Source of the DNA: Actinomycetota bacterium
GTDB taxonomy: Bacteria; Actinomycetota; Thermoleophilia; Gaiellales; Gaiellaceae
NCBI GenBank assembly: GCA_046728735.1
Contig: JBKPFG010000122.1
Span: forward strand, 1-50,794
Direction: 5' to 3'
Length of the DNA: 50,794 nt
Position 1 is the stretch's first letter; every line of letters begins with the position of its first letter. The position numbers were made by a program, and so were the translations under genes. Shown in pieces: positions 3,818 to 50,776 of this stretch. A model generated the notes under the pieces. That model was given only the letters and a program-made list of their open reading frames with translations, was not told the DNA's origin and searched no databases.

Positions 3818-3883
3818 GGGTGTAACGGTAATACCCGCCCCGCTACCATTCCCCGCGCGCGACCCGCGCCGAGGCGCCCCTCG

Positions 3884-8050: not shown

Positions 8051-8211
8051 CCGAGAAGAAGGGCGAACCCGCCACGAGGGAGGAGCTCGAGGAGCAGGAC
8101 CACGAGGAGCTTCCCGACCGCGAGGTCATGTCGATCGTCCCGATCCTCGATGCGACCGAGCCTCCGATCACCGCGGCGATCACTCCCGTCCCCGAGAAAC
8201 CGCCCGAATAG
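8047..8211 (+). CDS. Small acidic hypothetical protein (54 aa)
   Basis: ATG 8047 overlaps the preceding stop as ATGA, a translational-coupling signature. Translation reads MTEKKGEPATREELEEQDHEELPDREVMSIVPILD. The only support is the coupling and the codon bias. Confidence 0.35.
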   Translation: MTEKKGEPATREELEEQDHEELPDREVMSIVPILDATEPPITAAITPVPEKPPE

Positions 8212-8244
8212 CTCAGTCCGTCCATCCCGGTACCCTGATGGACG

Positions 8245-11241: not shown

Positions 11242-11277
11242 GCGTCGTGCGACCACTTCCTCGAAGGGCCTGAAGGC

Positions 11278-13453: not shown

Positions 13454-13485
13454 CTCAGGGTAGCCCCGAGAACTACACTCGCCCC

Positions 13486-17215: not shown

Positions 17216-17295
17216 GCGGGCTCGATGGAGGATGGCATTTTTGACCGGCTTGCGTCTTTCCTCGTGACGTAAGCTGGCTCGGTGCGGCGACGGAG

Positions 17296-18246: not shown

Positions 18247-18284
18247 CGTAGTCGGGCTGACGGCGTTCGTTAGCCTGACGAGTC

Positions 18285-36353: not shown

Positions 36354-37859
36354 ATGGCCAATCGAGCACTTGTCGTCGGCTGGGACGGCGCCGACTGGGA
36401 CATTCTCGACCCGCTGCTCGCCGCCGGCGAGCTGCCGACCGTGCGCGCGCTCGTCGAACGGGGACGGAGGGGCATCTCGCGGTCCTGCATGCCGTCCCAT
36501 TCCTGGGCCGCCTGGCCCACGTTCCTGACCGGTCGCGATCCCGGCGGTCACGGGGTCTTCGACATCCTCGAGTACCGCCCCGGGGCCTCCCGCCGCCTCC
36601 CGGTCTCATACGGGTCGATCCTCGCGCCGACGTGGCCCGAGCGGCTCTCGCAGGCCGACAAGACCTCGATCGTCATCAACGTGCCGCTGACGTATCCGGC
36701 GCCCGAGATCCGCGGCGCCCTCATCGCGGGCGGCCCGATCCCGCCGGGCACGACGTACAGCCATCCGGCGGAGCTCGGGCCGCGCCTCGGCTGGCCGATC
36801 AACGGAGGCTCGTGGACGACCTTTCGCAACAAGCCCGTCGAGCTCGTCGACGAGCTCGAGGAGCTGACCCGGAAGCGGGCCGCCGCGGCGCGCACGCTGC
36901 TCGACGAGGAGGACTGGGACGCGGCCTGCGTCGTCTTCGTCTCGCCGGACCGGGCCCAGCATTGCCTGCTCGAGTACGTCCACCCGGGCCATCCCGGCTA
37001 CTCGGAGGCGGCCGCCACCCCGGTCGCCGAGCGCGTCCGTGGCCTCTATCGGCTCCTGGACGCGGAGCTCGCCACGCTGCTCGAGCGCGCCGACGAGAAC
37101 GACCTCGTCGTGCTCATGTCCGACCACGGCCATCAGCCCGTCACCCGCTCGGTGTCGATGAACAAGATCCTCGAGCAGGAAGGGTTCCTCCGCTTCGGAG
37201 CCGGCTCGACCCTCGTCAACCTCCTCTCCTGGGGACGTGTGCGGGCCGTTGCCCGCGTCGTCTACGACAAGCTGGGCCTCCACGGGCGGGTGGCCGTACC
37301 GACGCCGCCGCTCGATTGGTCGCAGACGCGCGCATACACGAGCGTCGTCTCGACGGGAGAGGGCGTGTCGGTCAATCTCGTCGGGCGCGAGCCGCACGGG
37401 ACGGTTGCCCGCGCGGATTACGAGCGGGTTCGCGATGAGATCGCGGACGCGCTGCTCGCCTTCGAAGACCCCGACACCGGCACCCGGCCGATCGGGCACG
37501 TCGTCCGCAAGGAGGAGGTGCTCTCCGGTCCCTACCTCGACCGGGCGCCCGACCTGCTCCTGCAGCCGGCACCGCTCTACAGCCTCGCGCGGGCACGTCA
37601 TCTCGTCGCACCGGCGGACTGGCTCTCGGGCGATCATCGACCCGAGGGCATCTACGCCATGGCCGGTCCCGGGATCCCCGACGAGCTCGGGCCGGAGATG
37701 TCGCTCGCCGGCTTCGCCGGGCTGATCGCGGGCGCGGTCGGCCTTCAGCCGGACGAGGAGTGGAGCAGCACGCCGTCCGCCGAGCCGGTCGGCGTCTACA
37801 GCGAGGAGCAGGAGCGGCAGGTCGAGGAGCGGCTCCGCGGCCTCGGGTATCTCGAGTAG
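36354..37859 (+). CDS. Alkaline-phosphatase superfamily protein (type I phosphodiesterase / nucleotide pyrophosphatase family), divergent paralogue
   Basis: Translation begins MANRALVVGWDGADWDIL. Also present are CMPSHSWAAWPTFLTGRDPGGHGVF, LMSDHGH, GDHRPEGI and the C-terminal EERLRGLGYLE. I see no signal peptide or TM segment. Confidence 0.8.
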   Translation: MANRALVVGWDGADWDILDPLLAAGELPTVRALVERGRRGISRSCMPSHSWAAWPTFLTGRDPGGHGVFDILEYRPGASRRLPVSYGSILAPTWPERLSQADKTSIVINVPLTYPAPEIRGALIAGGPIPPGTTYSHPAELGPRLGWPINGGSWTTFRNKPVELVDELEELTRKRAAAARTLLDEEDWDAACVVFVSPDRAQHCLLEYVHPGHPGYSEAAATPVAERVRGLYRLLDAELATLLERADENDLVVLMSDHGHQPVTRSVSMNKILEQEGFLRFGAGSTLVNLLSWGRVRAVARVVYDKLGLHGRVAVPTPPLDWSQTRAYTSVVSTGEGVSVNLVGREPHGTVARADYERVRDEIADALLAFEDPDTGTRPIGHVVRKEEVLSGPYLDRAPDLLLQPAPLYSLARARHLVAPADWLSGDHRPEGIYAMAGPGIPDELGPEMSLAGFAGLIAGAVGLQPDEEWSSTPSAEPVGVYSEEQERQVEERLRGLGYLE

Positions 37860-37890: not shown

Positions 37891-39345
37891 GTGAGGGAGG
37901 AGCGCACGATCCTCACGGGCACGGCCGTCAACGTCGTCGGCCTGGTCGTCGGCGTGTTCGCCGCGCTCGGCGTTCAGATCCTCCTCGGACACGCGCTCGA
38001 GCCAGGCGCGTTCGGCCTCGTCACGGTCGCGGTGCAGGTCGCCTTCGTCGCCTCGGCGGGGAGCCGCTTCGGCATGGACATGGCCGCGGTGCGTCTCGTC
38101 GCCATCGGGCGCGGAGCGAGCAGCGTCGACAACCTCAGGAGCCTCGTCGAGCGCTGCGCCCTGGTCGCGGTCGCGGCCAGCGTGGTCGTGGCGGCGCTCC
38201 TGGCCGCCTCCGCGCCGCTCTACGACGGGTACACGCGGGTGATCGCACTGGCCTCCTTGAGCGTGCCCTTCATCGCCGTGACCAACGTCTATCTGGGGGC
38301 GACCCGCGGGCTCGGGCAGATGCGCCAGACGCTCTACGTGTTCTGGATCGGCCAGCCCGTCGTCTGGATCGCGGTTGCGGCGGCGGCCGTCGCCGTGGGC
38401 GGAGCGACCGATGCGGCGGTCCTCTCCTACGACTGCTCGTGGATCGCGGCGGCGGTGGCGGCGCGAGCGCTCTGGCGGCGGGAGGCAGCGCCGTACAGCG
38501 GGCGCGCCGCAAGCCGTGAGGAGGTGCGAGGCGCCCTCCGCTACGGGCTGCCGAGAGCGCCGGCCGCATTGCTCGCCCAGGCCGTCTTCTGGGCCGACCT
38601 CTGGGTGCTGGCGGCCTTCGAGCACGGCAACGAACTGGACGCCTACTCCGCGGCGGCTCGCATCTCGCAGGTGCTCCTCCTCTTCCTCACTTCGCTCAGC
38701 CTCGTCTTCTCGCCCTTCGCGGCCGACCTCCACGCGCGCGGGGAGCGTCAGCGTCTGGACGAGCTCTTCAAGCGCAGCACACGCTGGGCGCTGACGGCCA
38801 CGCTCCCGCTTCTGATCGTGCTCTTCGTGGCGGCCGACGACGTTCTGCATGCGTTCTCGGCCAGGTTCGAGATCGGCGAGAACGCGCTGCGCATCCTCCT
38901 GCTCGGGCAGACGGTCAACGTCGCCACCGGAAGCGTCGGGTTCATCCTCATCATGACCGGCTTCACCGGCGTCGACCTCATCGACAACGCGCTCGGGATC
39001 GCGCTCCTGGTCGGCCTCGCTGCCGCGCTGACGGCGGCGTTCGGGATCGAAGGGACGGCGACCGCCTCGGCCGTCAGCGTCGCCGGACTGAACGTGCTGC
39101 GCCTCTTCCAGGTGCGCCGCCGCATCGGGATCCAGCCGTACGACCGCACCTACGCCGGGCTCGTCGTACCCGCCGCCGCAGCGGCCCTTGCCGCGCTCGG
39201 GGCGCACGCGGCGCTCGCGGAAGAGTCGTGGCTGTTCTCGCTTGCCGCCACGTCCGCCTGCGGGCTCATTGCCTACGTCGCGCTGCTGCCGCTCGCCCTG
39301 CCGGCCGAGGAGCGGGCGGTCCTGCGGGCGAAGCTCCCCGCCTAG
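37891..39345 (+). CDS. Polysaccharide/oligosaccharide flippase, MOP superfamily (Wzx / Polysacc_synt-like)
   Basis: GTG lies 8 nt after AGGAGG. The protein is 484 aa with about 12-14 TM segments. The N-terminal pattern TGTAVNVVGLVVGVFAALGVQILLGHAL...FGLVTVAVQV is typical of Wzx-type flippases. Confidence 0.8.
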   Translation: MREERTILTGTAVNVVGLVVGVFAALGVQILLGHALEPGAFGLVTVAVQVAFVASAGSRFGMDMAAVRLVAIGRGASSVDNLRSLVERCALVAVAASVVVAALLAASAPLYDGYTRVIALASLSVPFIAVTNVYLGATRGLGQMRQTLYVFWIGQPVVWIAVAAAAVAVGGATDAAVLSYDCSWIAAAVAARALWRREAAPYSGRAASREEVRGALRYGLPRAPAALLAQAVFWADLWVLAAFEHGNELDAYSAAARISQVLLLFLTSLSLVFSPFAADLHARGERQRLDELFKRSTRWALTATLPLLIVLFVAADDVLHAFSARFEIGENALRILLLGQTVNVATGSVGFILIMTGFTGVDLIDNALGIALLVGLAAALTAAFGIEGTATASAVSVAGLNVLRLFQVRRRIGIQPYDRTYAGLVVPAAAAALAALGAHAALAEESWLFSLAATSACGLIAYVALLPLALPAEERAVLRAKLPA

Positions 39346-40166
39346 ACGTCCTCGAGGGCGACCTCGCTCTCGCCGACGTCGAGGAACCTCGTGTACGCCT
39401 CGATCACGGGCTCCGGCTCGTCACGCATCCTGATCCGACCCTGATGGAGCCAGACGACCTCCGTGCAGAGGTCGCCGATGCTCTTGAGCGCATGGCTCAC
39501 GATCATGATCGCCTGCGCCTGGTCGCAGAGCTCCTGGATCTTCTCGAAGCACTTGTGCTTGAAGCGGGCGTCGCCGACCGAGAGCGCTTCGTCGATGAGG
39601 AGGATGTCGGGGTCTGCATGCACCGCGACCGAGAAGGCGAGGCGGCCGTACATGCCGGACGAATAGGAGCGCATCGGCAGCTCCATGAAGTCGCCCAGCT
39701 CGGCGAACTCAGCGATCTCCTCGTACTTCGCCTCGATCTGCTCGCGCGTCAACCCGGCGGCGAGCCCACCGAGGACGACGTTGTCGCGGCCGGTCAGGTC
39801 GGCGTTGAAGCCGACGCCGAGCGCGAGCAGCGTGCTCACGCGGCCCCAGACCTCGATGCGCCCCTCGGTGGGAGGGAGAATGCCGGCGACCGCTCTCATG
39901 AGCGTGGACTTGCCGGCGCCGTTGACGCCGACGATCCCGAGGATCTCTCGCGGCGGCACCTCGAAGCTCACGTCGCGGAGCGCGTGGACCTCCCGCACGC
40001 TCCGCTCGCGCCGGCCGAGACGAATCAGCGCCTTCTTCAGCGTCGGCTTCTTCTCGTAGGTCGTGCGGTAGGAGACCGAGAGCTGGTCGACCTTGACCGC
40101 GAAGTCGCCGTATACGTCACCGTTGGTCGCGGCGATTGCGCTCTCAGATGCGGACGGCAAACTCAC
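39342..40166 (-). CDS. ABC transporter ATP-binding protein, polysaccharide/teichoic-acid export type (TagH/Wzt/KpsT-like)
   Basis: Walker A is GVNGAGKSTL, the signature is YSSGMYGRLAFS, and Walker B is ILLIDEALSVGD. The stop overlaps the flippase stop in a shared CTAG. Confidence 0.9.
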   Translation of the reverse strand: MSLPSASESAIAATNGDVYGDFAVKVDQLSVSYRTTYEKKPTLKKALIRLGRRERSVREVHALRDVSFEVPPREILGIVGVNGAGKSTLMRAVAGILPPTEGRIEVWGRVSTLLALGVGFNADLTGRDNVVLGGLAAGLTREQIEAKYEEIAEFAELGDFMELPMRSYSSGMYGRLAFSVAVHADPDILLIDEALSVGDARFKHKCFEKIQELCDQAQAIMIVSHALKSIGDLCTEVVWLHQGRIRMRDEPEPVIEAYTRFLDVGESEVALEDV

Positions 40167-41034
40167 GCTCCCTCGAGATGAAGATGAGAGCTCCGACGAG
40201 AAACGTCACGACCGCACCGGCCACTCCCCAGAGCATGTAGCCCGCATTCGGGTTTTGTCCCTGGTTGACGACGTCGCTCAACGAGGCGATGAGTGGAAAC
40301 AGCGGGTTCACGGCCATGAGCGGCTTGAACTTGTCCGGGACCTCGCTCGCGAAGTAGAGCACCGGCGAGAGGTAGAGCCAGATGCGGGTGAAGTAGGGAA
40401 GGAAGTTGGCGAAGTCGCGGAAGTAGACCTGAGCCGTGGCTGCGAGCATGGCGGCGCCGGCCGCGAAGACGACGAGCAGCGCGAGGATCGGAATCGTCCA
40501 GAGCAGATGCCAGCCGACCGGGAGACCGGCGATAGCGTGAACGCAGGCGTACACGATGATCGTCGGCACGAACTGCGCGAACGAGGTGAGCACCGACGAG
40601 AGCGGGAGAAGGGTGCGCGGAAAGGCGGTGTTGAGGATGAGGCGCCCGCCTCGTACGACGGAGCGGGCACCCTGGGAGAACGACGTGCTGACCAGCCGGA
40701 ACGCGAAGAGACCCAGCATGAGATGGGCGAGAAAGCCGATCCCTCGGCTTCCTCCCCCGATGATGTAGACGAGGATGAAGTAGACGAGCCCGAGGAGAAG
40801 CGGGTTGACGACGAGCCACAGCTGGCCGAGCGCGGTGTTGTAGTGCTGAACCCGGAGGTTCGCCTTCGCCAGCTCGTACGCCAGATGGCGGCGCTCCCAG
40901 AACGTGCGCAGGTATGCGCCCATGGGCGGCAAGCCGATGGGGTGGGGCTCGTAAACGTGCCGCTCGGGCAGCGTCCCGCCGGCATCGGCCGGTGTCGCGG
41001 CGGGCTGCTCGCGTGAAAGGCTCGGCGCTTCCAA
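40144..41034 (-). CDS. ABC-2 type transporter permease (TagG/Wzm-like)
   Basis: The protein has six TM segments. ABC-2 blocks are present (YNTALGQLWLVVNPLLL, and the FRDFANFLPYFTRIWLYLSPVLY region). It lies upstream of, and overlaps, the ATPase gene. Confidence 0.85.
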   Translation of the reverse strand: MEAPSLSREQPAATPADAGGTLPERHVYEPHPIGLPPMGAYLRTFWERRHLAYELAKANLRVQHYNTALGQLWLVVNPLLLGLVYFILVYIIGGGSRGIGFLAHLMLGLFAFRLVSTSFSQGARSVVRGGRLILNTAFPRTLLPLSSVLTSFAQFVPTIIVYACVHAIAGLPVGWHLLWTIPILALLVVFAAGAAMLAATAQVYFRDFANFLPYFTRIWLYLSPVLYFASEVPDKFKPLMAVNPLFPLIASLSDVVNQGQNPNAGYMLWGVAGAVVTFLVGALIFISREREFAVRI

Positions 41035-41065
41035 GGTCTGCTCAGGTTAGTCGCTCGAAGCGGCG

Positions 41066-41929
41066 TCAGATGACCGGAGGGCGGCCCGCGCGCGTCATGC
41101 GCCAGATCGTGCGCCAGCGCACCGGCTTGCGGCTTCCTGCCGGCTCCCGCAGTCCGTCGCGGTAGCCGCGAACGGCCTCGCGGGCGTCGCGCCTCGAGCG
41201 GAGGCCCGCACCGGTGCGGAGGGCCCAGACGGCGACGTGCACCGTGGCCAGCGGCCAGGGGAGGTTGCGCCGCGCCAACCAGACACGATTCCGGGCCGCC
41301 AGGTAGGGGACCTGACGCCGTTCTCGCGCGGCGGGTGCGGGATGCATGGCCAGCAGATCGCCCGCGTACCAGACGTGGTAACCGCGGTCCAGGATCCGCC
41401 AGGCGAGGTCGATCCCCTCGTGGAAGTAGAAGAACTCCGCCGGCCAGCCGCCGATTTCCTCGAACACGGACCGGCGCGCGACCGTTGCTCCCTCGCACAG
41501 CGCTACCACGTCGCTGCTCCGGCTTCGATCTCCGACGCGCAGTCGCGGAACCCAGTGGCGGGGCTCGGGACGCCCGGCAGGATCGGCGAGACGCAGCTGA
41601 AGCGCGCCGAGGGTTGCATCCCGTTCGAACATCTCGCCAACCCGCGCGAGTGTGTCGTCCTCGGCGAGGTAGGCGTCATCGTCGAGAAAAACGAGCAGCT
41701 CGCCCGCAGCCTGCGCCGCCCCCGCGTTTCTCCCGGCTGTCGCGCCGATGTTCTCCCGCAGTGCGAGCGCCCTAGCCTCGCTCGGAAGACCTGCCGGTTC
41801 GCAACCGTTGCCGACGACCACCAGGTCGGTTTCGACGCTCTTCTGGGTCAGCACGGACTCCACGGCCCGCTGCACGTCGTTCGGGCGAGAGCCCTGGGTG
41901 ACCACCACGCAGCCGAAGGACGGGGTCAC
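41066..41929 (-). CDS. GT2 glycosyltransferase (rhamnosyl/galactofuranosyl-transferase-like soluble GT-A)
   Basis: Blocks present are CVVVTQGSRPNDVQRAVESVL, VVVGNG, NIGATAGRNAG, FLDDDA and EGIDLAWR. GTG 41929 overlaps the upstream stop as GTGA. Confidence 0.85.
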   Translation of the reverse strand: MTPSFGCVVVTQGSRPNDVQRAVESVLTQKSVETDLVVVGNGCEPAGLPSEARALALRENIGATAGRNAGAAQAAGELLVFLDDDAYLAEDDTLARVGEMFERDATLGALQLRLADPAGRPEPRHWVPRLRVGDRSRSSDVVALCEGATVARRSVFEEIGGWPAEFFYFHEGIDLAWRILDRGYHVWYAGDLLAMHPAPAARERRQVPYLAARNRVWLARRNLPWPLATVHVAVWALRTGAGLRSRRDAREAVRGYRDGLREPAGSRKPVRWRTIWRMTRAGRPPVI

Positions 41930-42696
41930 TGGAGACGGTTCGAGGAGAGGATGATGGCCAGGTGACCGAGAGCGACCAGCGCCGCGACGACGAGGCGGGC
42001 GCCCAGCAGGATACGAGTTGCTAGCAGGTCGTCTCTGGCCGTGTCCAACAGGGCTGCGGCGAAGGCGAGCATGGTCAGCTCGATCGGGTTGAAGAGTCGA
42101 AAGAGCGGCACCGCGCCTGCGAGGCGGCGCGCTGAGCGCAAGCTCTGCGAGCGCGGGTCACGCGAGGCGTCTGCGTCTGCCAACGCGAGCTTCCCCTCGC
42201 GACCGCGAACCGAGTGGACGAGCTCGCTCTCGAGGCTGACGAGAAGCACGAGCAGCGAAGCGAGCAGGCCCAGAGCAGTCCAGCCGCCGACCGAGCTCCA
42301 GCCGCCGTCGGCTCGAACGCCCAGAGCAGCCGCCAGCGCCGCCTGCGTGACTGCATGGCTGAGCCCGTCCAGGTAGACGCCGCGCGACGAGCGGCTCTGT
42401 CGCCACCGCGCCACCTCGCCGTCCACGCAGTCGAAGAGAAGCCAGAGCTGCAGCAGAAGCGTCGCCCCGAGCGCCGCGGGCCAGCCGGGCAGGGAGAGCA
42501 CGAGGGCTCCCAGCAGGCCGCTGGCGATCATCAGACCGGTGACCTGGTTGGCCGTGATCGGGGTAGCGACGAACGCCCGGGTGGCGTACGGCGAAAGGCG
42601 GCGCATGTAGAGGCGGCCGGCCCAGTGCTCCTCGTCGCGTCGTCCGAGCACCTCGTCGGGCTGAGTCAGTGCCCGGATCTCAGCGATCGAGGGCAT
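41926..42696 (-). CDS. CDP-alcohol phosphatidyltransferase family membrane protein (copy B)
   Basis: ATG 42696 (MPSIAEIRAL). The family motif is DCVDGEVAR...G..LD (D-x2-DG-x2-AR). The protein has about 6 TM segments. Confidence 0.8.
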   Translation of the reverse strand: MPSIAEIRALTQPDEVLGRRDEEHWAGRLYMRRLSPYATRAFVATPITANQVTGLMIASGLLGALVLSLPGWPAALGATLLLQLWLLFDCVDGEVARWRQSRSSRGVYLDGLSHAVTQAALAAALGVRADGGWSSVGGWTALGLLASLLVLLVSLESELVHSVRGREGKLALADADASRDPRSQSLRSARRLAGAVPLFRLFNPIELTMLAFAAALLDTARDDLLATRILLGARLVVAALVALGHLAIILSSNRLQ

Positions 42697-43735
42697 CGAC
42701 GAACTCCTGCACGCGGGCTTCGATCTCCGCCTCCGCGAGATCGAGGTGCTCGAGGATCGTGTACCGGTCCGGACGGGTCGAGGGGGCGTGAGCGACGGCG
42801 GCGGCGAACTGGGCGGCCGTGAGGCCGAGGTCGGCCGGGAGCCGGGCGACGCCGTAGCGGGCGAGCGCGTCGTCCAGCGCGCCGAGGTTCTCGTCTTCAC
42901 GGAGGAACGAGGCGAAGAGCGCGCCGACCGCGACCTGCTCGCCGTGGCTGGCCGCACCGGGGTAGAGGGCGTCGATCGCGTGGGAGATCTCGTGGCAGGC
43001 GCCGCTGCAGGGCCGACTCGAGCCCGCGAGCGCCATTGCGAGGCCGCTGAGGACGAGGGCCTCGGCGAGGCCGGCGAGAAACTCCGGCGACGCCAGCTCC
43101 TCGTCGCGGTGGAGCAGAGACTCGGCCGCCGAGCGTGCGAGGGCCGCCGCGAGACCGTCGATGGGCTCGCCGCGCTCGCGGCCTGCCAGCTCCCAGTCGG
43201 CCAAAGCGCTGAGGTTGCTGAGCGCGTCGCCGACTCCCGAGCGAAGCTGCTCGGGCGGGCAGGTGCGCACATAGTCCAGGTCGACGAAGACCGCGATCGG
43301 AAGATGGACGCCGTACGAGCCTTTGTGGCCGTCGTACTCGAGCGAGGCGACCGGCGAGGCGATGCCGTCGTGCGCGAGGTTGGTCGCGACCGAGACCATG
43401 GGCAGCCCGGTGAGGCTCGCGGCGTACTTCGCCACGTCGAGCGTGCGCCCGCCGCCGATGCCCACGACCGCGTCGTAGGAGCCCGTGCTCAGCGAGTCGG
43501 CGAGCTCCGCTGCAGCCTCCCGCGTACCGCCCTCGACCGGATAGACGTCGGCGTTTTGGAGCGCGGGGCCGATATCGGTGACCACGCGTTCCCCCTGGCC
43601 GGGGCCGACGACGACCGCTACGTGGCCCTGGGACGAGATGCGGCTGTCGTTTAGGAGCTCGGCGAGACCCTTGACCGCGCCCGAGCGGATCTCGACCGTC
43701 AGCGGGCACGCGACCATCCGCGCTAGTAGCGGCAT
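42680..43735 (-). CDS. Iron-containing alcohol dehydrogenase fold, sn-glycerol-1-phosphate dehydrogenase-like (EgsA/AraM family)
   Basis: Blocks present are VVGIGGGRTLDVAKYAA, PMVSVATNLAHDGIASPVASL and SHGEQVAVG. The DGIASP block is what I associate with G1P dehydrogenases rather than GldA or DHQS. The start is ATG 43735 or ATG 43717. Confidence 0.7.
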   Translation of the reverse strand: MPLLARMVACPLTVEIRSGAVKGLAELLNDSRISSQGHVAVVVGPGQGERVVTDIGPALQNADVYPVEGGTREAAAELADSLSTGSYDAVVGIGGGRTLDVAKYAASLTGLPMVSVATNLAHDGIASPVASLEYDGHKGSYGVHLPIAVFVDLDYVRTCPPEQLRSGVGDALSNLSALADWELAGRERGEPIDGLAAALARSAAESLLHRDEELASPEFLAGLAEALVLSGLAMALAGSSRPCSGACHEISHAIDALYPGAASHGEQVAVGALFASFLREDENLGALDDALARYGVARLPADLGLTAAQFAAAVAHAPSTRPDRYTILEHLDLAEAEIEARVQEFVDALDR

Positions 43736-44454
43736 TCGATCTCCCTCGCCCTCGCGAGATCGGCGTGGTCGTCCACTTCGACCCAGTCCACGTCTCCGAT
43801 CGGCGCCGCGTGCACCTCGCCGCCGCGGTCGACGAGCTCCTGGAAGCCACCCTCGTAGTAATCCGAGGGATCCCGCCGCCAGGTCGCCTCGAGCGCATCC
43901 GCGAGCTGCTCGGCGGCCGGGGGCTCGACGAGCGTGACGCCGATGTACTCGCCCTGGGCGGCGGCCGGGTCGATCTCCTTGCTGACGGTCCGCAGGCTGC
44001 CGTCATCGGCGAGGAGCACCTTCATCTCCTCCCGGCCGAGCCGCTTCAACGTGTCGACCGCGAGCAGGACACCCGGGCCCCGGGCGGCGAGCAGGCTCTT
44101 CTCGACCGATGCCGGGTGCACGGTGTCGCCGTTCACGAGCAGCGCGCCATCGCGGAAGGCCTCTCGCGCGAGCCAGAGTGAATAGGCGTTGTTCCACTCC
44201 TCCGCGCGCTCGTTGAAGAGGAGCTCCAACCTGACGTCGTGGCGCCGCTCGAGCCCGTCCCGTTGCTCGGCCACGCGTTCGGCTGCGAAACCCGTCACGA
44301 CGACCACCTCTCGGAGGCCGACCGAGCGGAGATTCGCGAGGGACCGGTCGAGGATCGTGCGCCCGTTGGAGAGTGGCAGCAGCGCCTTCGGGAGCTCGTT
44401 CGTCAGAGGCTGGAGCCGGCGCCCGGGGCCGGCCGCGAGCACGATGCCCTTCAT
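43723..44454 (-). CDS. Nucleotidyltransferase (LicC / IPCT-like cytidylyltransferase, NTP_transf_3 type)
   Basis: ATG 44454 overlaps the upstream stop as ATGA. Blocks present are MKGIVLAAGPGRRLQPLTNELPKALLPL, WNNAYSLWLA and LVNGDTV. Confidence 0.85.
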   Translation of the reverse strand: MKGIVLAAGPGRRLQPLTNELPKALLPLSNGRTILDRSLANLRSVGLREVVVVTGFAAERVAEQRDGLERRHDVRLELLFNERAEEWNNAYSLWLAREAFRDGALLVNGDTVHPASVEKSLLAARGPGVLLAVDTLKRLGREEMKVLLADDGSLRTVSKEIDPAAAQGEYIGVTLVEPPAAEQLADALEATWRRDPSDYYEGGFQELVDRGGEVHAAPIGDVDWVEVDDHADLARAREIECRY

Positions 44455-45557
44455 CCTGCGCCCTCGACGGACGCCTCCCGCATGGACCGGCTCCACCTGA
44501 GCGCGGCCTCGGCCGCGTAGAGAGCCGCGAGCAACCCGGCGGCGACGGCGAGGCCGATCGTCAGCACGTCCGCAAGCGCGAGGACGACCACGAGGAGGAC
44601 GTGTCCTTCCCAGCCGCCTCCCAGAGCGCGGGCGCGGGTTGCGGAGCCCTCGCCCTGCTCGAGGCGACTGAGGGTGTCGTACTGGTGGAACGCGAGAACC
44701 GCGAGGAAGGCGAAGCAGGCGGGGAGTGCGTCCGGGTCGGCCAGGTCGACGATCGCGATCACGACTCCGAATTCCAGTGCGCGCGCGAGCTGGGCCGAGA
44801 GCCAGCTCAGGGTGGCCGCGCCCATGATCCGGGCGGCGAGCGGGCCGTCGTCCCGATAGACGCCGTAGTCGCGCCTCTCGGCCCCACCGCTGAGCAGTCG
44901 CCTCGTGAGCGGGGACGCAGTCGCGAGAGCTCCCCAGGCAAGGAGGATGACGAAAGTGACCCGGGGGGTGAAGAGAGCGGCGGTGAGCGAGATGACGAGG
45001 AAACGCTCGCCGATCGGGAAGGCGAAGATCCGTGCGGGCCAGACCCGGAGGCCGCTGCGGGCCTCGAGCGCCTCGGCTCGCCCCTTCCCGGCCGCGTACG
45101 CGGCGTCTCCTAGATGCCGAACTGTCAGCAGCGCGAGGGCGCAGCACGCGAGGAGCCAGACGCCCTCGTCGTAGCCGCGTGCGGCTCCGACGGCCAGCCC
45201 GGCATAGACCAGGTGCTCCTTCGTCCTGTCGAGGACCGAGTCGAGCCACGCGCCCAGGCTCGAGAACGTAGCCGTGTAGCGCGCCAACTGGCCGTCGACG
45301 CAGTCGGCCGTGAACGACAGCTGGAGCACGAGCGCTCCAGCGACCGAAGCCCAGCGCGTCCCGACCCCGAAACATGCCGCCGCCGCGGCCCCGAGAGCGA
45401 ACGAGACCAGGGTGACGGCATTCGGTGTCCAGCCCCGGACGGCGGCGAAGCGGGCGAGATGCTTGGAGTACGGGCTGACGAGGAACGTGGCGAAGAAGCC
45501 GTCGTTCGACTTCACCGCTGCGTCCAGCCTCGCCCGCTCTTCGGCCCGAATGGTCAT
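44451..45557 (-). CDS. CDP-alcohol phosphatidyltransferase family membrane protein (copy A) with an extra C-terminal membrane domain
   Basis: The family motif is DCVDGQLAR...G.WLD. An additional C-terminal hydrophobic domain of about 170 aa follows. The start is ATG 45557 (MTIRAEERARL) or GTG 45581. It is the first gene of the minus-strand operon. Confidence 0.75.
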   Translation of the reverse strand: MTIRAEERARLDAAVKSNDGFFATFLVSPYSKHLARFAAVRGWTPNAVTLVSFALGAAAAACFGVGTRWASVAGALVLQLSFTADCVDGQLARYTATFSSLGAWLDSVLDRTKEHLVYAGLAVGAARGYDEGVWLLACCALALLTVRHLGDAAYAAGKGRAEALEARSGLRVWPARIFAFPIGERFLVISLTAALFTPRVTFVILLAWGALATASPLTRRLLSGGAERRDYGVYRDDGPLAARIMGAATLSWLSAQLARALEFGVVIAIVDLADPDALPACFAFLAVLAFHQYDTLSRLEQGEGSATRARALGGGWEGHVLLVVVLALADVLTIGLAVAAGLLAALYAAEAALRWSRSMREASVEGAG

Positions 45558-45639
45558 GCCGACATCATCGCCGCCCTGCACATGATCATGGCGCGCACCG
45601 ACGGCGACGCGGAGGCCCGTCGTTACGATTTCGCGCGCG

Positions 45640-46782
45640 ATGGTGCTGAAGATCTTGTTCTGGACGAGCCTCGGCTTGCTCCTCTGGACGCACGTGGGCT
45701 ATCCGCTCGCGATCGGCCTCCTGGCGGCGATCGCACGACGGCGCGTTCGGAAGGTGGACATAACGCCGACCGTCGCCGTGATCGTGGTCGCCCACGACGA
45801 GGAGGACGTTCTCGACCGGCGGCTCGAGAACCTGTCCGCGCTCGACTATCCGCCGGAGCGGCTGGAGATCGTCGTGGCCTCGGACGGCTCCCGAGACCGA
45901 ACCGATGAGATCGTGGAGGCTCACGCCTCTCGGGACCGACGGATCAGCCTGCTGCGGCGTCCGCGGGAGGGCAAGCTCGCCGCGCAGGATGCCGCGGTCG
46001 ACGTCGTGACGGCTGAGGTCGTCGCCTTCTCCGATGCAAACGCGATCTGGTCGTCCGACGCCCTGCGCGCGCTCGTGCGCAACCTCGGGGACCCGAGGGT
46101 GGGGTACGTCTGCGGCCAGCTCCGCCTCGAGGATTCCGGCGGGACGAATCGCGAGGGCTGGTACTGGCGCTACGAGCTGTGGCTCAGGGAGAGGGAGTCG
46201 CTGGCAGGCTCCGTCACCGGCGGCAACGGAGCGATCTACGCTGTGCGACGGGCAGATTACGTGGCCACGCAGCCGGAGTTCGCGCACGACATCGGGCTGC
46301 CTTACCTCATGGTGCAGCGAGGTCGCCGCGCCGTGTACGAGCCCGAGGCAATCGCCGTCGAGCGACCCTCACGCGATGCGGAAGACGAATTTCGGCGCAA
46401 GACGAGGATGTTCGCCCGCAGCTGGCCTCACGTCCTGCGAGGCTGGATGTTTCGGGGCGGGTCGCCCCTCTACTTCTTTCAGCTCATTTCCCACCGAGCC
46501 CTGCGCTACGGCAGCGGCCTTCTCCACCTCCTCCTGCTGGTCACGAACTTCGCGCTCGTCAGAGAAGGCCTCGTGTACGAGCTCGCCCTGTCGGCCCAGC
46601 TCGCCTGGCTCGTCCTGGTGCTCGCCGGCAGGTTGCGTCTCCCGCTTCCCGGCGCGGCGCTCGCCTATTACTACTTCCTCGTGACCCTCGCGACCATCGT
46701 CGGCCTCGTGAGCTATCTGCGCTTCGGCGTTCCGGCCGTCTGGGAGAAGGCGGGGGGGACCCGACCGGAGGCAACCTCGTGA
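45640..46782 (+). CDS. Membrane-embedded GT2 glycosyltransferase (PgaC / cellulose-synthase-like architecture)
   Basis: An N-terminal TM is followed by VAVIVVAHDEEDVL, VASDGSRDRT, FSDANA, GGNGAIY and EDEFRRKTRM, then C-terminal TMs. Confidence 0.85.
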   Translation: MVLKILFWTSLGLLLWTHVGYPLAIGLLAAIARRRVRKVDITPTVAVIVVAHDEEDVLDRRLENLSALDYPPERLEIVVASDGSRDRTDEIVEAHASRDRRISLLRRPREGKLAAQDAAVDVVTAEVVAFSDANAIWSSDALRALVRNLGDPRVGYVCGQLRLEDSGGTNREGWYWRYELWLRERESLAGSVTGGNGAIYAVRRADYVATQPEFAHDIGLPYLMVQRGRRAVYEPEAIAVERPSRDAEDEFRRKTRMFARSWPHVLRGWMFRGGSPLYFFQLISHRALRYGSGLLHLLLLVTNFALVREGLVYELALSAQLAWLVLVLAGRLRLPLPGAALAYYYFLVTLATIVGLVSYLRFGVPAVWEKAGGTRPEATS

Positions 46783-47468
46783 GCAGGCCCTCGACCGACG
46801 GCTACGAGCGCCGAAAGAGGCTGCTCGACCTCGTCATCGCTGTGCCGGTAGGAGTGGTGCTCGCCCCTCTGATCGGTGCGTTTGCCGCTGCCGTCAAGCT
46901 CGAGAGTCGCGGTCCCGTCTTCTTTCGTCAGGAGCGCGTCGGCCGCCACGGTCGTCCCTTCGAGATTCTGAAGCTGCGCACGCTCCGCCACGAGCCGCCT
47001 GCGGGGCCGGCCGACTTTCTCATCCGGGCGGACGACGACCGCATCACGCGGGTGGGGGCGTTCTTACGGCGCTGGTCGCTCGACGAGCTCCCGCAGCTCT
47101 GGAACATCATCCGCGGAGACATGAGCATCGTCGGTCCTCGCCCGACTCTGCGGTACCAGGTCGACCAGTACACGCCTTTTCAGCTTCGGCGGCTCGAGGT
47201 TCTCCCGGGCATCACCGGGTGGGCACAGATTCACGGCCGCAACTACCTGAGCTGGCCGCAGCGGATCGAACACGACGTCTGGTACGTCGACCACCGCTCG
47301 TTCTCACTCGATCTCCGCATCCTTCTGGCCACGCCCAGGATCCTGCTGACGCCGCGGTCCATCTACGGCGACGCCCAAGGGGACTGGGGTGAGCGGGCGA
47401 CGACCGCTAACCGAGGGGACGAGCAGGAACACCGGCAACCCGGGCCCCATCCGGAACGTCCGCGATGA
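46779..47468 (+). CDS. Small bacterial sugar transferase (PglC/WecP-like polyprenyl-phosphate hexose-1-phosphate transferase)
   Basis: GTG 46779 overlaps the upstream stop as GTGA. Blocks present are KRLLDLVIAVPVGVVLAPL, VFFRQERVG..G.PF.ILKLRT, DELPQLWNIIRGDMSIVGPRP and PGITGWAQI. Confidence 0.85.
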   Translation: MSRPSTDGYERRKRLLDLVIAVPVGVVLAPLIGAFAAAVKLESRGPVFFRQERVGRHGRPFEILKLRTLRHEPPAGPADFLIRADDDRITRVGAFLRRWSLDELPQLWNIIRGDMSIVGPRPTLRYQVDQYTPFQLRRLEVLPGITGWAQIHGRNYLSWPQRIEHDVWYVDHRSFSLDLRILLATPRILLTPRSIYGDAQGDWGERATTANRGDEQEHRQPGPHPERPR

Positions 47469-48119: not shown

Positions 48120-49529
48120 ATGTCTCACCGCCTCGTGTATCCGTCCGCGCTCGTCGCCGTGCTCGCGCTCGGCGTCTCGGCGTGTTCGAGCGGAGAAGAG
48201 ACGGCCACGACACCTGCGCCGCGAGCTGCGACGCCGACCGTCGAGCAGCCTGCGCCGCCCGCTCCCGTCGCCGTCATCGGCGTTCGCGACGGCGACACGT
48301 CGAAGCCCGTTCGAGACGCGACCTTGAAGCTCGGGGACGAGACCCTGGAGCTCGGGTCGAAAGGGGTCGCCCGGCTCGCGCCTCGCCCCCGCGCCACGGT
48401 GAAGGTATCCGCCCGCGGCTACGGCCCCCGGGTCGTCGACGTCAGCTTCCGGCGACAACTGGTGCAGAGCATCGATCTCTGGCGCCCTGCCGCCCAGTGG
48501 CCGGTCTACGGGGCGAATCCCGCGCGGACGCAGGCTCACTCGGGGATCAAGCTCAGGCCGCCCTTCCGGGTGCTCTGGCGGCGGGACCTTGGCGCCTTGC
48601 TCGAGTTCCCGGCCGTCGTCTGGAACGGCGTGGCCTACGTCAACAGCCTCGACGGGTGGCTGCGTGCCCTCTCGATGAAGAACGGGCACGTTCTCTGGCA
48701 CAAGAGGGTGGGAAGCAGGATGGCGTCCTCTCCCGGCCTCGATCCCAAGCGCGGGCTCCTCGTGACGACGTCGATGACTCCCGGCTCCATGAAAGTGCTC
48801 ACGATGAAGACCGGTCACGTCCACTGGAGCCTCTCCACCGGGCGCACCGAGCCCTCGCCGGTCGTTCGGAACGGCCTGGCCTACGTCGGCGCCGCCAACG
48901 GGAACGTGTACGCGCTCGACCTCGCTCGCAAGCGAGTGAAGTGGGTCTTCCACGGCGGATCGAAGATCACCGGTAGCCCGGCGCTCCAGGGTCGGCGGCT
49001 CTTCGTCGGAGATTACGCGGGGCGGGTGTTCGCCCTCGATGCTCGCACGGGCAGGCGTCTCTGGACGAACGGCGTGAGCGGCCGCGTGTACGGGACGACC
49101 CCGGTTGCCGGCGGCCGGGTCTTCGCGCCCTCGGTGACCTCGGGGCTGTCGGCGTTCTCCGCTCGGAGCGGCCGCCTGCTCTGGCACATCCCGGTCAGCG
49201 CCTACCTCTACTCCTCGCCCGGCGTCTATCGCGGACGCGTCTACTTCGGCGCGTACACCGGGTACGTCTACTGCGCCTCGGCGAGCTCGGGTCGCATCCT
49301 CTGGGCGAGATCCGCCGGCGGAGCGGTGTCGGGCGCCATCGAGATCGTGGACGGCCTCGTCTACGCCGGGAGCTTCGGGGGCCGCATCACGGCGTGGGAC
49401 TGGCGCAGCGGCCGAAGGGTCTGGACCTTCTCGCACGGCCGGTACGTGCCCGTCTCGGGGAGCGCGGCCGCCCTCCTGCTCCACAGCGCCCGCTCGATCT
49501 GGGCCGTCACCGGTAGGAAACGGCACTGA
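48120..49529 (+). CDS. Lipoprotein with PQQ-like (BamB-type) beta-propeller repeats
   Basis: ATG 48120. The lipobox-type signal is LVAVLALGVSAC. A Pro/Ala linker follows, then repeated G.(V/L)YA.D...G...W blades (NGNVYALDLARKRVKW, AGRVFALDARTGRRLW, ...). Confidence 0.75.
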   Translation: MSHRLVYPSALVAVLALGVSACSSGEETATTPAPRAATPTVEQPAPPAPVAVIGVRDGDTSKPVRDATLKLGDETLELGSKGVARLAPRPRATVKVSARGYGPRVVDVSFRRQLVQSIDLWRPAAQWPVYGANPARTQAHSGIKLRPPFRVLWRRDLGALLEFPAVVWNGVAYVNSLDGWLRALSMKNGHVLWHKRVGSRMASSPGLDPKRGLLVTTSMTPGSMKVLTMKTGHVHWSLSTGRTEPSPVVRNGLAYVGAANGNVYALDLARKRVKWVFHGGSKITGSPALQGRRLFVGDYAGRVFALDARTGRRLWTNGVSGRVYGTTPVAGGRVFAPSVTSGLSAFSARSGRLLWHIPVSAYLYSSPGVYRGRVYFGAYTGYVYCASASSGRILWARSAGGAVSGAIEIVDGLVYAGSFGGRITAWDWRSGRRVWTFSHGRYVPVSGSAAALLLHSARSIWAVTGRKRH

Positions 49530-49540
49530 CCCTCCGACGC

Positions 49541-50776
49541 GTGGTAATCGGCCTCGTCGTGCTCGTGCTCCTTCTGGCCGCGGGTGCCGGCGCCGCCTGG
49601 TGGTGGAACAAGCGCGAGACGCAGGACGTGCGCGGGTCGTCGACGAGAGAGTTCGACACCACCGAGGTGGTGAGCACCCGCCCCGAAGAGGAGGTCGACA
49701 CCGAGCCCTGGCCCATCTACGGGCTGACCCCTGACCGGACGCGCAACGCCGTCGATTTCGACCATCGGCCGCCGTTCCGGCGCGTCTGGGTGGTCAAGGG
49801 ACGCGGTCTCCTCGAATTCCCTCCCGTGATCGCGTACGACCGCCTCTACTTCTCGAACGCGGTCGGGGTCTTCTCCGCCATCTCCGCGGAAACAGGCAAG
49901 CTGGTCTGGCGCCGGCGAATGGGCTACGTCACCGCGGCGTCGCCCGCGGTGGGCGATGGGATCGTCTACCAGCCCTTCATGAATCGCCTGGGCCAGGAGC
50001 GCGGCGCCTCCTCGGGCCTCGTCGTAGCGCTGGACGCCGAGACCGGCGACGAGCTGTGGCGCTTCAAGGCCGGAGCGGTCGAATCGTCTCCCTTGCTCGT
50101 GCAAGGAAGCCTCTACTTCGGGAGCTTCGACGGGAATGTCTACTCACTCGACGCGCGGACGGGGAAGGCTCGCTGGAAGTCCAAGACCGGGGGGCGCGTG
50201 AAGGGAGGGCCGGCGCTCTCGCACGGCGTCCTCTACACCGGCTCGTACGACGGAAAGGTCTATGCGTTGGACGCCGCGACCGGGCATCGACGCTGGGTTG
50301 CGAAAGGACAGAGCGGGCTCTTCGGGTCGGGCACCTTCTATGCCGGGCCCGCCGTTGCCTACGGGAGGGTCTTCATCGGGAACACCTCCGGCAAGGTCTA
50401 CGCGTTCGGGGCGAAGTCGGGCGACCTCCTGTGGTCGAAGACGACAGCGAATTACGTCTATTCGTCGGCGGCCGTGGACGATCGCCGGATCTTCGTGGGC
50501 TCCTACGACGGCCACTTCTACGCGCTCGACGCCGCGACCGGCGATGCCGCATGGAGCTTCGACGCCCGGGGTCAGATCTCGGGCTCGCCGACGATCATGG
50601 CGGGCGCGGTGTACTTCTCCACGCTCGCCGGCAAGACGTACGCGCTCGACACCCGCAACGGGAAGGTCGTGTGGACGTTCCCTGACGGCCGCTACACGCC
50701 GCTGGTCGCGGATTCGGAGCGAACGTACATCGTCGGCAGAGGCAAGATCTACGCCTTCACGGCGCGGAAGCCGTAG
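49541..50776 (+). CDS. Membrane-anchored PQQ-like beta-propeller repeat protein
   Basis: GTG start. The N-terminal TM is VIGLVVLVLLLAAGAGAAWWW. Eight or so blades follow (DGNVYSLDARTGKARW, DGKVYALDAATGHRRW, SGKVYAFGAKSGDLLW, DGHFYALDAATGDAAW, ...). Confidence 0.75.
   Translation: MVIGLVVLVLLLAAGAGAAWWWNKRETQDVRGSSTREFDTTEVVSTRPEEEVDTEPWPIYGLTPDRTRNAVDFDHRPPFRRVWVVKGRGLLEFPPVIAYDRLYFSNAVGVFSAISAETGKLVWRRRMGYVTAASPAVGDGIVYQPFMNRLGQERGASSGLVVALDAETGDELWRFKAGAVESSPLLVQGSLYFGSFDGNVYSLDARTGKARWKSKTGGRVKGGPALSHGVLYTGSYDGKVYALDAATGHRRWVAKGQSGLFGSGTFYAGPAVAYGRVFIGNTSGKVYAFGAKSGDLLWSKTTANYVYSSAAVDDRRIFVGSYDGHFYALDAATGDAAWSFDARGQISGSPTIMAGAVYFSTLAGKTYALDTRNGKVVWTFPDGRYTPLVADSERTYIVGRGKIYAFTARKP

Follow-up and report, generated by a model that had tools for sequence, protein, structure and literature searches.

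Can a bacterium make cytidine diphosphate (CDP)-activated glycerol phosphate for a surface polymer without TagD? This question is raised by an operon of seven minus-strand genes in tight overlap (39342-45581) on contig JBKPFG010000122.1 of an actinomycetotal bacterium of the Gaiellaceae (Thermoleophilia; assembly GCA_046728735.1). The whole stretch analysed, here called the window, measures 50.8 kb and has ~70% G+C. The operon encodes two proteins of the CDP-alcohol phosphotransferase family (CDPOH1 and CDPOH2), a nucleotidyltransferase (NT), a dehydrogenase of the iron-containing alcohol dehydrogenase fold (FeADH), a glycosyltransferase of family 2 (GT2) and the two components of an ABC-2 exporter. 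An earlier note on this DNA, made from its letters alone, had read the operon as a non-TagD route to a CDP-activated polyol phosphate and held the combination to be biochemically uncharacterised; the searchable literature, which omits most subscription papers, indeed yielded no functional or biochemical study of these genes. Each part of that reading that could be checked computationally was borne out. With little more than even confidence, we favour the view that the operon is a self-contained, TagD-independent module by which an envelope glycopolymer destined for export receives glycerol phosphate.

The operon and its genes

Genes were called in the window from codon usage and then scanned against Pfam, which gave 40 genes. 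Those of the operon are, in order of transcription:

44451-45581, minus strand: CDPOH1, 376 aa, with DCVDGQLAR at residues 93-101; PF01066 plus DUF5941 (PF19365)
43723-44454, minus strand: NT, 243 aa, with MKGIVLAAGPGRRL at residues 1-14 and NNAYSLWLA at 88-96; NTP_transf_3 / NTP_transferase
42680-43735, minus strand: FeADH, 351 aa, with GIGGGRTLDVAKYAA at residues 92-106 and NLAHDGIASP at 119-128; Fe-ADH_2
41926-42696, minus strand: CDPOH2, 256 aa, with DCVDGEVAR at residues 89-97; PF01066
41066-41929, minus strand: soluble GT2 glycosyltransferase, 287 aa; PF00535
40144-41034, minus strand: ABC-2 exporter permease, TagG/Wzm-like; ABC2_membrane
39342-40166, minus strand: ABC exporter ATPase, TagH/Wzt-like; ABC_tran

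Translation of the window reproduced the coordinates and junctions that the earlier note had given for the first four genes, and every motif that it quoted is present in their products. The continuation that it described, into a GT2 and a TagG/TagH-like exporter, is borne out by the PF00535, ABC2_membrane and ABC_tran genes downstream. Third-codon-position G+C lies between 0.84 and 0.91 in each of the CDPOH1, NT, FeADH and CDPOH2 frames, and we therefore regard all four as genuine genes. Reading frames meet in an ATGA at 44451-44454, in overlaps of 13 nt (43723-43735) and 17 nt (42680-42696), and in a GTGA at 41926-41929; overlap at all four junctions indicates translational coupling, which we count in favour of a single module. 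Since a database protein 99% identical to CDPOH1 has 368 aa, the probable start of CDPOH1 is the ATG at 45557.

The TagD signatures HxGH and RTxGISTT occur in none of the six frames of the 50-kb window, which upholds the claim that no TagD-type (HxGH) enzyme is encoded there, and the 40 called genes include no TagD-type Pfam cytidylyltransferase. Nor is there a match to the inositol-1-phosphate synthase (MIPS) family among these 40 genes, and Pfam scans of the window revealed neither a solute phosphatase nor an LtaS-type PF00884 protein. The operon contains no kinase gene, and no RNA gene came up when the window was scanned with Rfam and for tRNAs.

Dehydrogenase and nucleotidyltransferase

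FeADH matches Pfam Fe-ADH_2 with 111 bits and, over its full length, the NCBIfam glycerol-1-phosphate dehydrogenase (G1PDH) model NF002022 with 241 bits, as opposed to 58 bits for GldA and 39 for AroB, in agreement with the G1P-dehydrogenase-like protein of Fe-ADH fold that had been claimed. Compared as a single sequence with Protein Data Bank (PDB) entries, it matched 3ce9 (152 bits), 4rgq (142 bits) and 5fb3 (131 bits), with 9h4x next and true GldA ~100 bits lower. A family profile built from 41 diverse homologues gave 336 bits with 3ce9, 290 with 5fb3 and 284 with 4rgq, and 176 with 9h4x, which we take to be an AraM of the B. subtilis type and an experimentally proven G1PDH; GldA reached at most 125 bits and dehydroquinate synthases (DHQS) at most 63. 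Residues D170, H248 and H264 of FeADH align with the metal-binding Asp/His/His triad of the M. jannaschii G1PDH, presumably D148/H226/H247 (a numbering consistent with the alignment offsets). Both histidines are invariant and D170 is nearly so (>=90%) across the 41 homologues. Homologues carry the label G1PDH at JGI and 'iron-containing alcohol dehydrogenase family protein' in the NCBI pipeline. A look-up by exact sequence in an assembly collection gave no contig with a protein identical to FeADH. In published phylogenies, Streptomyces and other actinobacterial homologues lie inside the G1PDH clade, and the same studies leave their function open or speculate on archaeal-like lipids (PMC5059525, PMC6431249). 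The earlier note had proposed as a check to place the dehydrogenase among EgsA/AraM, GldA and DHQS: the profile favours the G1PDHs and the metal triad is kept, and by sequence FeADH is a member of the G1PDH (EgsA/AraM) clade and not of GldA or DHQS. Its predicted activity is the reduction of dihydroxyacetone phosphate (DHAP) with NAD(P)H to sn-glycerol-1-phosphate, the stereospecificity being presumed.

The N-terminal nucleotide-binding motif G-x-G-x-R-L is present in NT as LAAGPGRRL (residues 6-14). A profile of 13 NT orthologues scored 92.6 bits with LicC, 70.6 with the T. maritima structure 4jd0 and 70.3 with the PntC-type structure 6pd1, all over ~235 residues (full length), compared with at most 52 bits for mannose- and glucose-1-phosphate nucleotidyltransferases. 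According to Pfam, NT stands outside the TagD family, in a different fold family. Since the full-length matches to LicC, 4jd0 and 6pd1 exceed those to the sugar-1-phosphate enzymes, NT is likely to be a cytidylyltransferase for a small phospho-alcohol, as its earlier description as LicC/IPCT-like implied. We predict that this LicC/IPCT/PntC-type enzyme is a CTP:glycerol-1-phosphate cytidylyltransferase, the choice of glycerol-1-phosphate resting on its linkage and fusion to the G1PDH-like enzyme.

The two CDP-alcohol phosphotransferases

Both of the CDP-alcohol phosphatidyltransferases noticed earlier are PF01066 proteins, and by sequence they are closest to AF2299 and IPCT-DIPPS, the branch that uses soluble CDP-alcohol donors. 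The family motif D-x2-D-G-x2-A-R-x8-G-x3-D-x3-D is complete in CDPOH1 (DCVDGQLARYTATFSSLGAWLDSVLD, residues 93-118) and is kept in 55 of 58 orthologues; its best PDB sequence matches are AF2299 and IPCT-DIPPS. In the AlphaFold2 model (predicted local distance difference test 84, predicted TM-score 0.87) the first six helices superpose on AF2299 (Foldseek E 2e-6), on phosphatidylinositol phosphate synthases and on IPCT-DIPPS, and as modelled CDPOH1 has the catalytic fold of six transmembrane (TM) helices. The "extra membrane domain" reported before corresponds to DUF5941, on which no paper turned up in the searchable literature. With this domain included, the whole length of CDPOH1 aligns loosely with the 10-TM enzymes CHPT1/CEPT1 (query TM-score 0.55-0.59, root-mean-square deviation (rmsd) 7-9 A), with which it shares 14-16% sequence identity. 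Assignment of DUF5941 to a known fold was rejected, as Foldseek gave only a loose match to TM7-10 of CHPT1/CEPT1. The domain has invariant polar residues of its own (E270, Y301, D302 and W324), which suggests that it is functional rather than a passive anchor.

CDPOH2 matches PF01066 with 32.9 bits (cutoff 22) and has AF2299 as its best PDB match. Its motif, DCVDGEVARWRQSRSSRGVYLDGLSH, reads D..DG..AR-x8-G-x3-D-x3-H, so that the fourth Asp is replaced by His. Of 75 orthologues, 28 have His here, 47 have Ala and none has Asp.

CDPOH2 is present in 74 of 80 related loci (described below) and, as the transferase that accompanies NT and FeADH, appears to be the core transferase of the module. Of the 71 loci that could be judged, 52 have a CDPOH1 orthologue; within 10 kb the gene is missing, with CDPOH2 kept, from all 13 Kitasatospora loci and from L001, L004 and L005, and CDPOH1 is thus an accessory, dispensable member. 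The Ala form of CDPOH2 occurs only in loci with CDPOH1 (46 of 46), and all 15 loci without CDPOH1 have the His form, a correlation confounded by phylogeny (Streptomyces versus Kitasatospora). With the same confounding, the pattern fits a His form that is self-sufficient and an Ala form that depends on CDPOH1, and it suggests either a CDPOH1-CDPOH2 heterodimer or a division of labour.

Conservation of the operon across genomes

Related loci were collected with the FeADH family profile, run against a genome set in which each GTDB species has one representative, and the best 80 loci among the matches listed were compared by tblastn and clustering. They come from Gaiellaceae and other Thermoleophilia, Microthrixaceae, Streptomyces, Kitasatospora, Kribbella and Actinopolymorpha, and include L001 (Thermoleophilia-type), L004 (uncultured Actinomycetes), L005 (Microthrixaceae) and L007 (uncultured Actinomycetota). 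At least 49 of these best 80 loci have all seven genes on one strand and in the order seen here, and NT, FeADH, CDPOH2, permease and ATPase are found together in at least 68, which answers the question of co-occurrence across genomes that the earlier note had raised; both counts are lower bounds because some contigs end within the locus. The seven-gene order is common to Thermoleophilia, Streptomyces and Actinopolymorpha, and NT adjoins FeADH in 79 of the 80 loci (tblastn). The closest named relatives of the window proteins come from metagenome-assembled genomes of Gaiellaceae and Thermoleophilia.

The genes downstream of CDPOH2 are similarly widespread. Orthologues of the operon GT2, for which no PDB sequence match was found, occur in 66 of 78 loci; the gene is missing from L001 and from the Gaiellaceae relatives L081-83. 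Permease orthologues were found in 69 of 76 loci and ATPase orthologues in 65 of 72. The permease scored 50 bits with the NCBIfam galactan export permease; the ATPase matched the teichoic-acid export ATPase best (218 bits, cutoff 538), followed by the galactan Wzt (198 bits, cutoff 400), and consists of the nucleotide-binding domain, without the C-terminal carbohydrate-binding domain. These scores assign the proteins to the TagG/TagH-type family and to no particular class of substrate. In L007 a TarS-like glycosyltransferase gene (GT2 plus TarS_linker, 11056-12297) is inserted between FeADH and CDPOH2.

Independently, a 2026 synteny survey describes these genes in Streptomyces as 'orphans' that are syntenic with tagG, tagH and araM (PMC13118837), and its supplement counts them in ~92% of 929 complete genomes (CDP-alcohol transferase 856, GT2 843, NT 855), with the NT duplicated in 76. 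Searches of the literature for G1PDH, cytidylyltransferase and teichoic acid, and for CDP-alcohol transferase, teichoic acid and ABC transporter, returned only this survey; on TagD in Streptomyces, nothing usable was found in the searchable literature or in the survey supplement. In the Streptomyces and Kitasatospora loci (L010-L080) the operon lies directly upstream of a hopanoid cluster (~+4.8 to +11 kb from FeADH) with two squalene/phytoene synthases, an amine oxidase, a polyprenyl synthase and a squalene-hopene cyclase, an adjacency restricted to this lineage. From synteny with the hopanoid cluster we guess that SCO6752-6758 of S. coelicolor are this operon, a mapping that is not confirmed; the searchable literature gave only two incidental mentions of these genes. 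SCO6753, which is likewise not confirmed as an operon gene, is reported to be PhoP-dependent and to have a PHO box (PMC4173021), as one would expect for a polymer rich in phosphate.

Two loci depart from this arrangement. In L051 (Kribbella), NT-FeADH is followed by a phosphatase gene of the Y_phosphatase3 family (11148-11858), with no CDP-alcohol transferase or exporter there, which may reflect a different use of the cassette. In L004, where CDPOH1 is missing, a Stealth-family hexose-1-phosphate transferase gene (7555-8517) lies just upstream of NT.

Fusion proteins and polysaccharide loci of other bacteria

The protein P0221 (579 aa; L084 10001-11740, on a metagenome contig of GC 0.29) joins a complete NT to a G1PDH-like domain; its NT part is 33% identical to that of the window (E 2e-32) and its dehydrogenase part 40% identical. 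A small CDP-alcohol transferase gene lies directly 3' of it, and the contig also carries GT4, radical-SAM, GT2, Wzx-type flippase and PF01663 genes. In a further protein, P0349, an NT-like domain is fused to a CDPOH1-like CDP-alcohol transferase. A metagenome scan seeded with P0221, followed by local hidden Markov model searches, found the triad of NT, FeADH and CDP-alcohol transferase on four additional contigs (40-43% G+C), only the NT-FeADH pair on three others, and a stand-alone egsA-like gene at some 70 metagenome loci. L086 has DnaA and BamD-like genes that mark its source as a diderm; the genes after its triad encode Wzy_C, a fusion of GT4 and Bac_transf, an acetyltransferase and a DegT aminotransferase. 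The triad of L099 has a Wzx flippase gene on one side and, on the other, genes for a further NT, a PF01663 protein and a further CDP-alcohol transferase. The triad is thus found in low-GC polysaccharide loci of the Wzx/Wzy type, with initiating Bac_transf genes, GT4s and aminosugar genes. The three-gene core is thus a portable cassette that occurs, also in unrelated low-GC bacteria, in polysaccharide biosynthesis loci with different export systems. The conservation of the operon, the NT-G1PDH fusion and the triad in polysaccharide loci together back a functional coupling of the three enzymes.

Glycopolymer genes around the operon

Gene calls and Pfam show the window to be a large envelope-glycopolymer region, with several GT2s, epimerases and a MOP flippase in addition to the operon, which is also adjoined by a PglD-like acetyltransferase gene. 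Two TagF-like CDP-glycerol users, recognised earlier and confirmed here by PF04464, lie 15-25 kb from the operon, outside the conserved module, and two genes run divergently from it:

18354-20177, plus strand: TagF-like CDP-glycerol glycerophosphotransferase; PF04464, 380 bits
21298-24759, plus strand: TagF-like protein with an N-terminal GT2 domain; GT2 plus PF04464, 281 bits
45640-46782, plus strand: GT2, divergent from the operon; Pfam
46779-47468, plus strand: initiating phosphoglycosyl transferase of the Bac_transf family, divergent from the operon; Pfam

The divergent GT2 and Bac_transf genes (45640-47468) are candidates for building a lipid-linked acceptor. L081-83 likewise have a Bac_transf gene that runs divergently from the operon, an association local to the Gaiellaceae.

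Proposed route to an exported glycopolymer

The sequences establish the gene content, the family placements, the conserved order of the genes, the fusion of NT with G1PDH and the occurrence of the three-gene core in polysaccharide loci. From these the following route can be envisaged, in which the substrates, their stereochemistry, the acceptor, the choice between single and polymerising transfer and the final product are inferred. FeADH would reduce DHAP to sn-glycerol-1-phosphate, which NT would convert with CTP to CDP-glycerol, predicted to be the sn-1 enantiomer. At the cytoplasmic face, the CDP-alcohol phosphotransferases of the AF2299/DIPPS branch would then move glycerol phosphate onto a hydroxyl group of a membrane-bound acceptor, either a lipid-linked glycan or a glycolipid, with release of CMP. 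CDPOH2 would serve as the core transferase, and CDPOH1 with its DUF5941 domain would perform a second transfer or chain-extension step or act as a partner subunit; the two may work in sequence, in a primase/polymerase-like manner, or as a heterodimer. The operon GT2 would add a sugar, and the TagGH-like ABC-2 transporter would export a teichoic-acid-like polymer containing glycerol phosphate. That the product would resemble teichoic acid is suggested by the TagH-like ATPase, the TarS-like insert in L007, the TagF-like genes of the window and the divergent initiating transferase in Gaiellaceae.

Several points weigh against this proposal. The 241 bits of FeADH are below the 413-bit equivalog cutoff of NF002022, although this model was built on archaeal EgsA, so that bacterial members fall under the cutoff, and the best PDB match of FeADH, 3ce9, is a structural-genomics entry deposited as 'glycerol dehydrogenase'. 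The fourth Asp of the motif is usually taken as the catalytic base of CDP-alcohol phosphotransferases, and CDPOH2, which by its sequence has Ala there throughout most Streptomyces, may be inactive in those organisms. We know of no CDP-alcohol phosphotransferase that acts on glycan acceptors or polymerises. The window yielded no LCP ligase or lipid-anchor gene, and the absence of tagD covers the 50-kb window, not the rest of the genome. Export of a 'polymer' is read, by analogy, from the type of exporter alone, and the enzyme activities throughout the module are predictions from sequence.

Alternative explanations

NT and FeADH might act as a TagD substitute that supplies TagF-type polymerases encoded elsewhere, with the transferases in a peripheral role such as a lipid anchor or linkage unit; this overlaps with the proposed module and, taken by itself, is unlikely, though far from negligible. 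It would account for the two TagF-like genes in a window that has no TagD motif, and for L064 (S. griseoluteus), where a second NT-FeADH pair (9273-11062) without transferases or exporter lies between rne and rplU-rpmA-obg, 5-9 kb from a group of GT4, GT2+TagF-like and TagF-like genes (13616-21037). The NT duplication in 76 Streptomyces genomes (PMC13118837 supplement) could be understood in the same way, and at least one TagF-like polymerase takes CDP-1-glycerol in vitro, although another, Cps3D, was inactive on pure CDP-1-glycerol (PMC8262930). However, FeADH has a TagF-like gene nearby (up to 10 kb away) in only a few of the best 80 loci, and in distant low-GC lineages it is a CDP-alcohol transferase that accompanies NT-FeADH, with no TagF-like gene among the Pfam-annotated genes there. 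As the module is mostly not next to TagF genes in other genomes, the feeding of TagF-like enzymes would be at best a secondary role. FeADH could also yield some other phospho-polyol, or a polyol that is phosphorylated elsewhere, and the donor would then be CDP-2-glycerol, as in the pneumococcal Gtp1-3 pathway, CDP-tetritol or CDP-pentitol. The shortfall from the G1PDH equivalog cutoff, the non-committal NCBI name and the range of LicC-like cytidylyltransferases, which use several small phospho-alcohols and phosphonates, are consistent with this, but we consider it quite unlikely: the match to the G1PDH model is full-length and scores fourfold the next family, the profile scores 284-290 bits against archaeal G1PDHs and only 176 against 9h4x, which we presume to be a proven G1PDH, the metal ligands and their flanking motifs are conserved, and an operon free of kinases fits a substrate that is already phosphorylated. 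The published trees, too, have the Streptomyces homologues within G1PDH (PMC5059525, PMC6431249).

In a pathway of the Kennedy type, CDP-(sn-1)-glycerol would be joined to diacylglycerol or another lipid to give phosphatidylglycerol or a glycerophospho(glyco)lipid, which the GT2 would glycosylate and the ABC transporter flip. The full-length CDPOH1 model does align with CHPT1/CEPT1, enzymes that combine a soluble CDP-alcohol donor with a lipid as acceptor; the glycerol in the headgroup of phosphatidylglycerol is sn-1 (PMC7086022), and in Streptomyces the operon adjoins a hopanoid lipid cluster. At an rmsd of 7-9 A, however, the likeness beyond the six core helices is weak, ABC-2 exporters of the TagGH/Wzt type would, by analogy, carry polymers, the triad of other phyla occurs in Wzx/Wzy polysaccharide loci with initiating phosphoglycosyl transferases, and the hopanoid adjacency is limited to the Streptomyces/Kitasatospora lineage; a lipid of this kind is therefore improbable. 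An archaeal-type ether lipid was rejected, as neither the called genes of the window nor the Pfam-scanned neighbours of related loci include one of PcrB/GGGPS or UbiA type; the polyprenyl and squalene genes beside the Streptomyces operon belong to the hopanoid cluster. The resemblance of NT to IPCT, the closeness of both transferases to AF2299 and IPCT-DIPPS, and the existence of fusions between NT-like domains and CDP-alcohol transferases, as in IPCT-DIPPS, would all suit a soluble phosphodiester solute such as di-myo-inositol phosphate, diglycerol phosphate or glycerophosphoinositol. Yet a glycosyltransferase and an exporter of the polymer type are conserved as parts of the operon, the triad occurs within polysaccharide loci, no inositol-1-phosphate synthase or solute phosphatase was found in the window, and the module is near-universal in mesophilic Streptomyces. 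A solute product was rejected as the principal explanation on the exporter, the GT2 and the polysaccharide-locus context, and its probability is very small.

Comparison with known systems

The module proposed here, which would decorate an exported glycopolymer with glycerol phosphate, works like a hybrid of the IPCT/DIPPS and TagD/TagF/TagGH pathways, with a precursor enzyme from archaeal lipid synthesis. Having no MIPS, no TagD, no TagF-fold enzyme in the conserved part and no LtaS, it is a member of neither pathway. With the IPCT/DIPPS route to di-myo-inositol phosphate (Archaeoglobus, Thermotoga, Rubrobacter) it shares a LicC-like cytidylyltransferase and a six-TM CDP-alcohol phosphotransferase of the same branch, the closest solved structures, a soluble CDP-alcohol and the adjacency or fusion of the two enzymes. 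In contrast, the inositol-1-phosphate of that route comes from MIPS, while the operon has glycerol-1-phosphate predicted to come from the G1PDH-like enzyme, together with two transferases, one with DUF5941 and one without the fourth Asp, and a coupling to a GT2 and an ABC-2 exporter that points to a surface polymer over a cytoplasmic solute.

Wall teichoic acid synthesis by TagD-TagB/TagF-TagGH (Bacillus, Staphylococcus) resembles the operon in its CDP-glycerol donor (predicted here), its use of the cytoplasmic face, its TagH/TagG-like exporter and its associated glycosyltransferases, including the TarS-like one of L007. It differs in that it depends on TagD, a cytidylyltransferase family that the operon lacks, in that its precursor is sn-3 whereas that of the operon is predicted to be sn-1, and in that transfer is carried out by peripheral enzymes of the TagF fold (PF04464) instead of integral-membrane CDP-alcohol phosphotransferases. 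AraM with PcrB in Bacillus subtilis and EgsA in archaeal lipid synthesis belong to the same enzyme clade as FeADH, with the same predicted conversion of DHAP to sn-glycerol-1-phosphate (PMC5059525, PMC6431249), but glycerol-1-phosphate is prenylated in these systems and predicted to be nucleotide-activated here. The phosphocholine system LicC/LicD and the aminoethylphosphonate enzyme PntC likewise use a LicC-fold cytidylyltransferase to activate a small phospho-alcohol for a glycopolymer, and the CDP-2-glycerol pathway of pneumococcal Gtp1-3 counts among these LicC-type systems of surface-glycan activation. Their transfer step is catalysed by LicD/fukutin- or TagF-type enzymes; that of the operon would fall to the CDP-alcohol phosphotransferase family, with a substrate supplied by a G1PDH-like enzyme. 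Finally, the Kennedy enzymes CHPT1/CEPT1 have in common with the CDPOH1 model a soluble CDP-alcohol donor and a six-TM core with extra C-terminal helices, from which CDPOH1 is set apart by its low identity (14-16%), the high rmsd and the invariant polar residues of DUF5941 itself.

Significance for bacterial surface polymers

CDP-1-glycerol has been called "likely absent" in bacteria, in which the known Gro1P moieties all derive from phosphatidylglycerol (PMC8262930); the operon predicts bacterial CDP-1-glycerol, contrary to this assumption, a prediction open to direct test. Actinobacteria such as Streptomyces and Thermobifida lack LtaS and yet produce lipoteichoic acid, by a pathway that has been an open question since 2009 (PMC3196553) and for which the near-universal Streptomyces operon is a concrete candidate. 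A more far-reaching claim, which we put forward tentatively and regard as rather doubtful, is that the operon represents the first bacterial route to CDP-sn-1-glycerol, that its transferases form a third, so far unrecognised class of surface-polymer glycerophosphotransferases beside the TagF and LtaS types, and that Streptomyces and related Actinomycetota use it to make poly(glycerol phosphate) (lipo)teichoic acid independently of LtaS. If right, this claim would also explain a deep bacterial G1PDH clade without archaeal-type lipids.

The bacterial G1PDH clade, mainly of Firmicutes and Actinobacteria, has been cited in the 'lipid divide' debate as a sign of possible archaeal-type lipids (PMC6431249). 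The gene context of FeADH argues for a glycopolymer role of this clade instead. If the proposal is right, the reach of the CDP-alcohol phosphotransferase family would go beyond lipids and solutes and include the modification of glycans. The stereochemistry of a wall polymer decides which hydrolases, such as GlpQ, degrade it (PMC7086022), and may also affect its recognition by antibodies and phages. The operon, near-universal in a model genus, bears on two open questions and is easy to test, with predictions from sequences and structural models as the starting point.

Phosphodiesterase-like genes and other features of the window

Genes of the AlkP superfamily, mostly PF01663 type I phosphodiesterases, recur beside the triad of NT, G1PDH and CDP-alcohol transferase in unrelated lineages, and their products might act on the polymer as phosphotransferases or as trimming enzymes. 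The gene 3' of the exporter in the Gaiellaceae relatives L081-83 belongs to PF00884. The AlkP-superfamily genes of the window and of related loci are:

34917-36296, minus strand: PF01663 phosphodiesterase, window
36354-37859, plus strand: PF01663 phosphodiesterase, window
1060-2160: AlkP-superfamily gene, L084
10567-12198: AlkP-superfamily gene, L099
13558-14964: PF00884 gene of the sulfatase/LtaS superfamily, L081-83

At the left end of the window (275-6665) lies an unrelated cluster with a homocysteine S-methyltransferase, an aromatic amino-acid lyase, an ATP-grasp protein and an MFS transporter. It is followed at 9796-17215 by a group of Wzy_C, GT4, GtrA, methyltransferase and sulfotransferase genes (sulfotransferases at 12587-13453, plus strand, and 16145-17215, minus strand), which suggests a sulfated glycan; sulfotransferase genes flank the operon in L001 and L081-83 too. 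Three well-supported coding regions of 374-500 aa (14642-16144, 20174-21298 and 25782-27242), which belong to the glycopolymer cluster by position, have no Pfam match at E <= 0.001. Within the glycopolymer region, tandem paralogues at 28477-30456 and 30464-32449 encode large DUF6077 membrane proteins. At the right end stands a tandem of PQQ-like/BamB-like beta-propeller genes (48120-49529 and 49541-50776), and members of the same family are found near the operon in L081-83.

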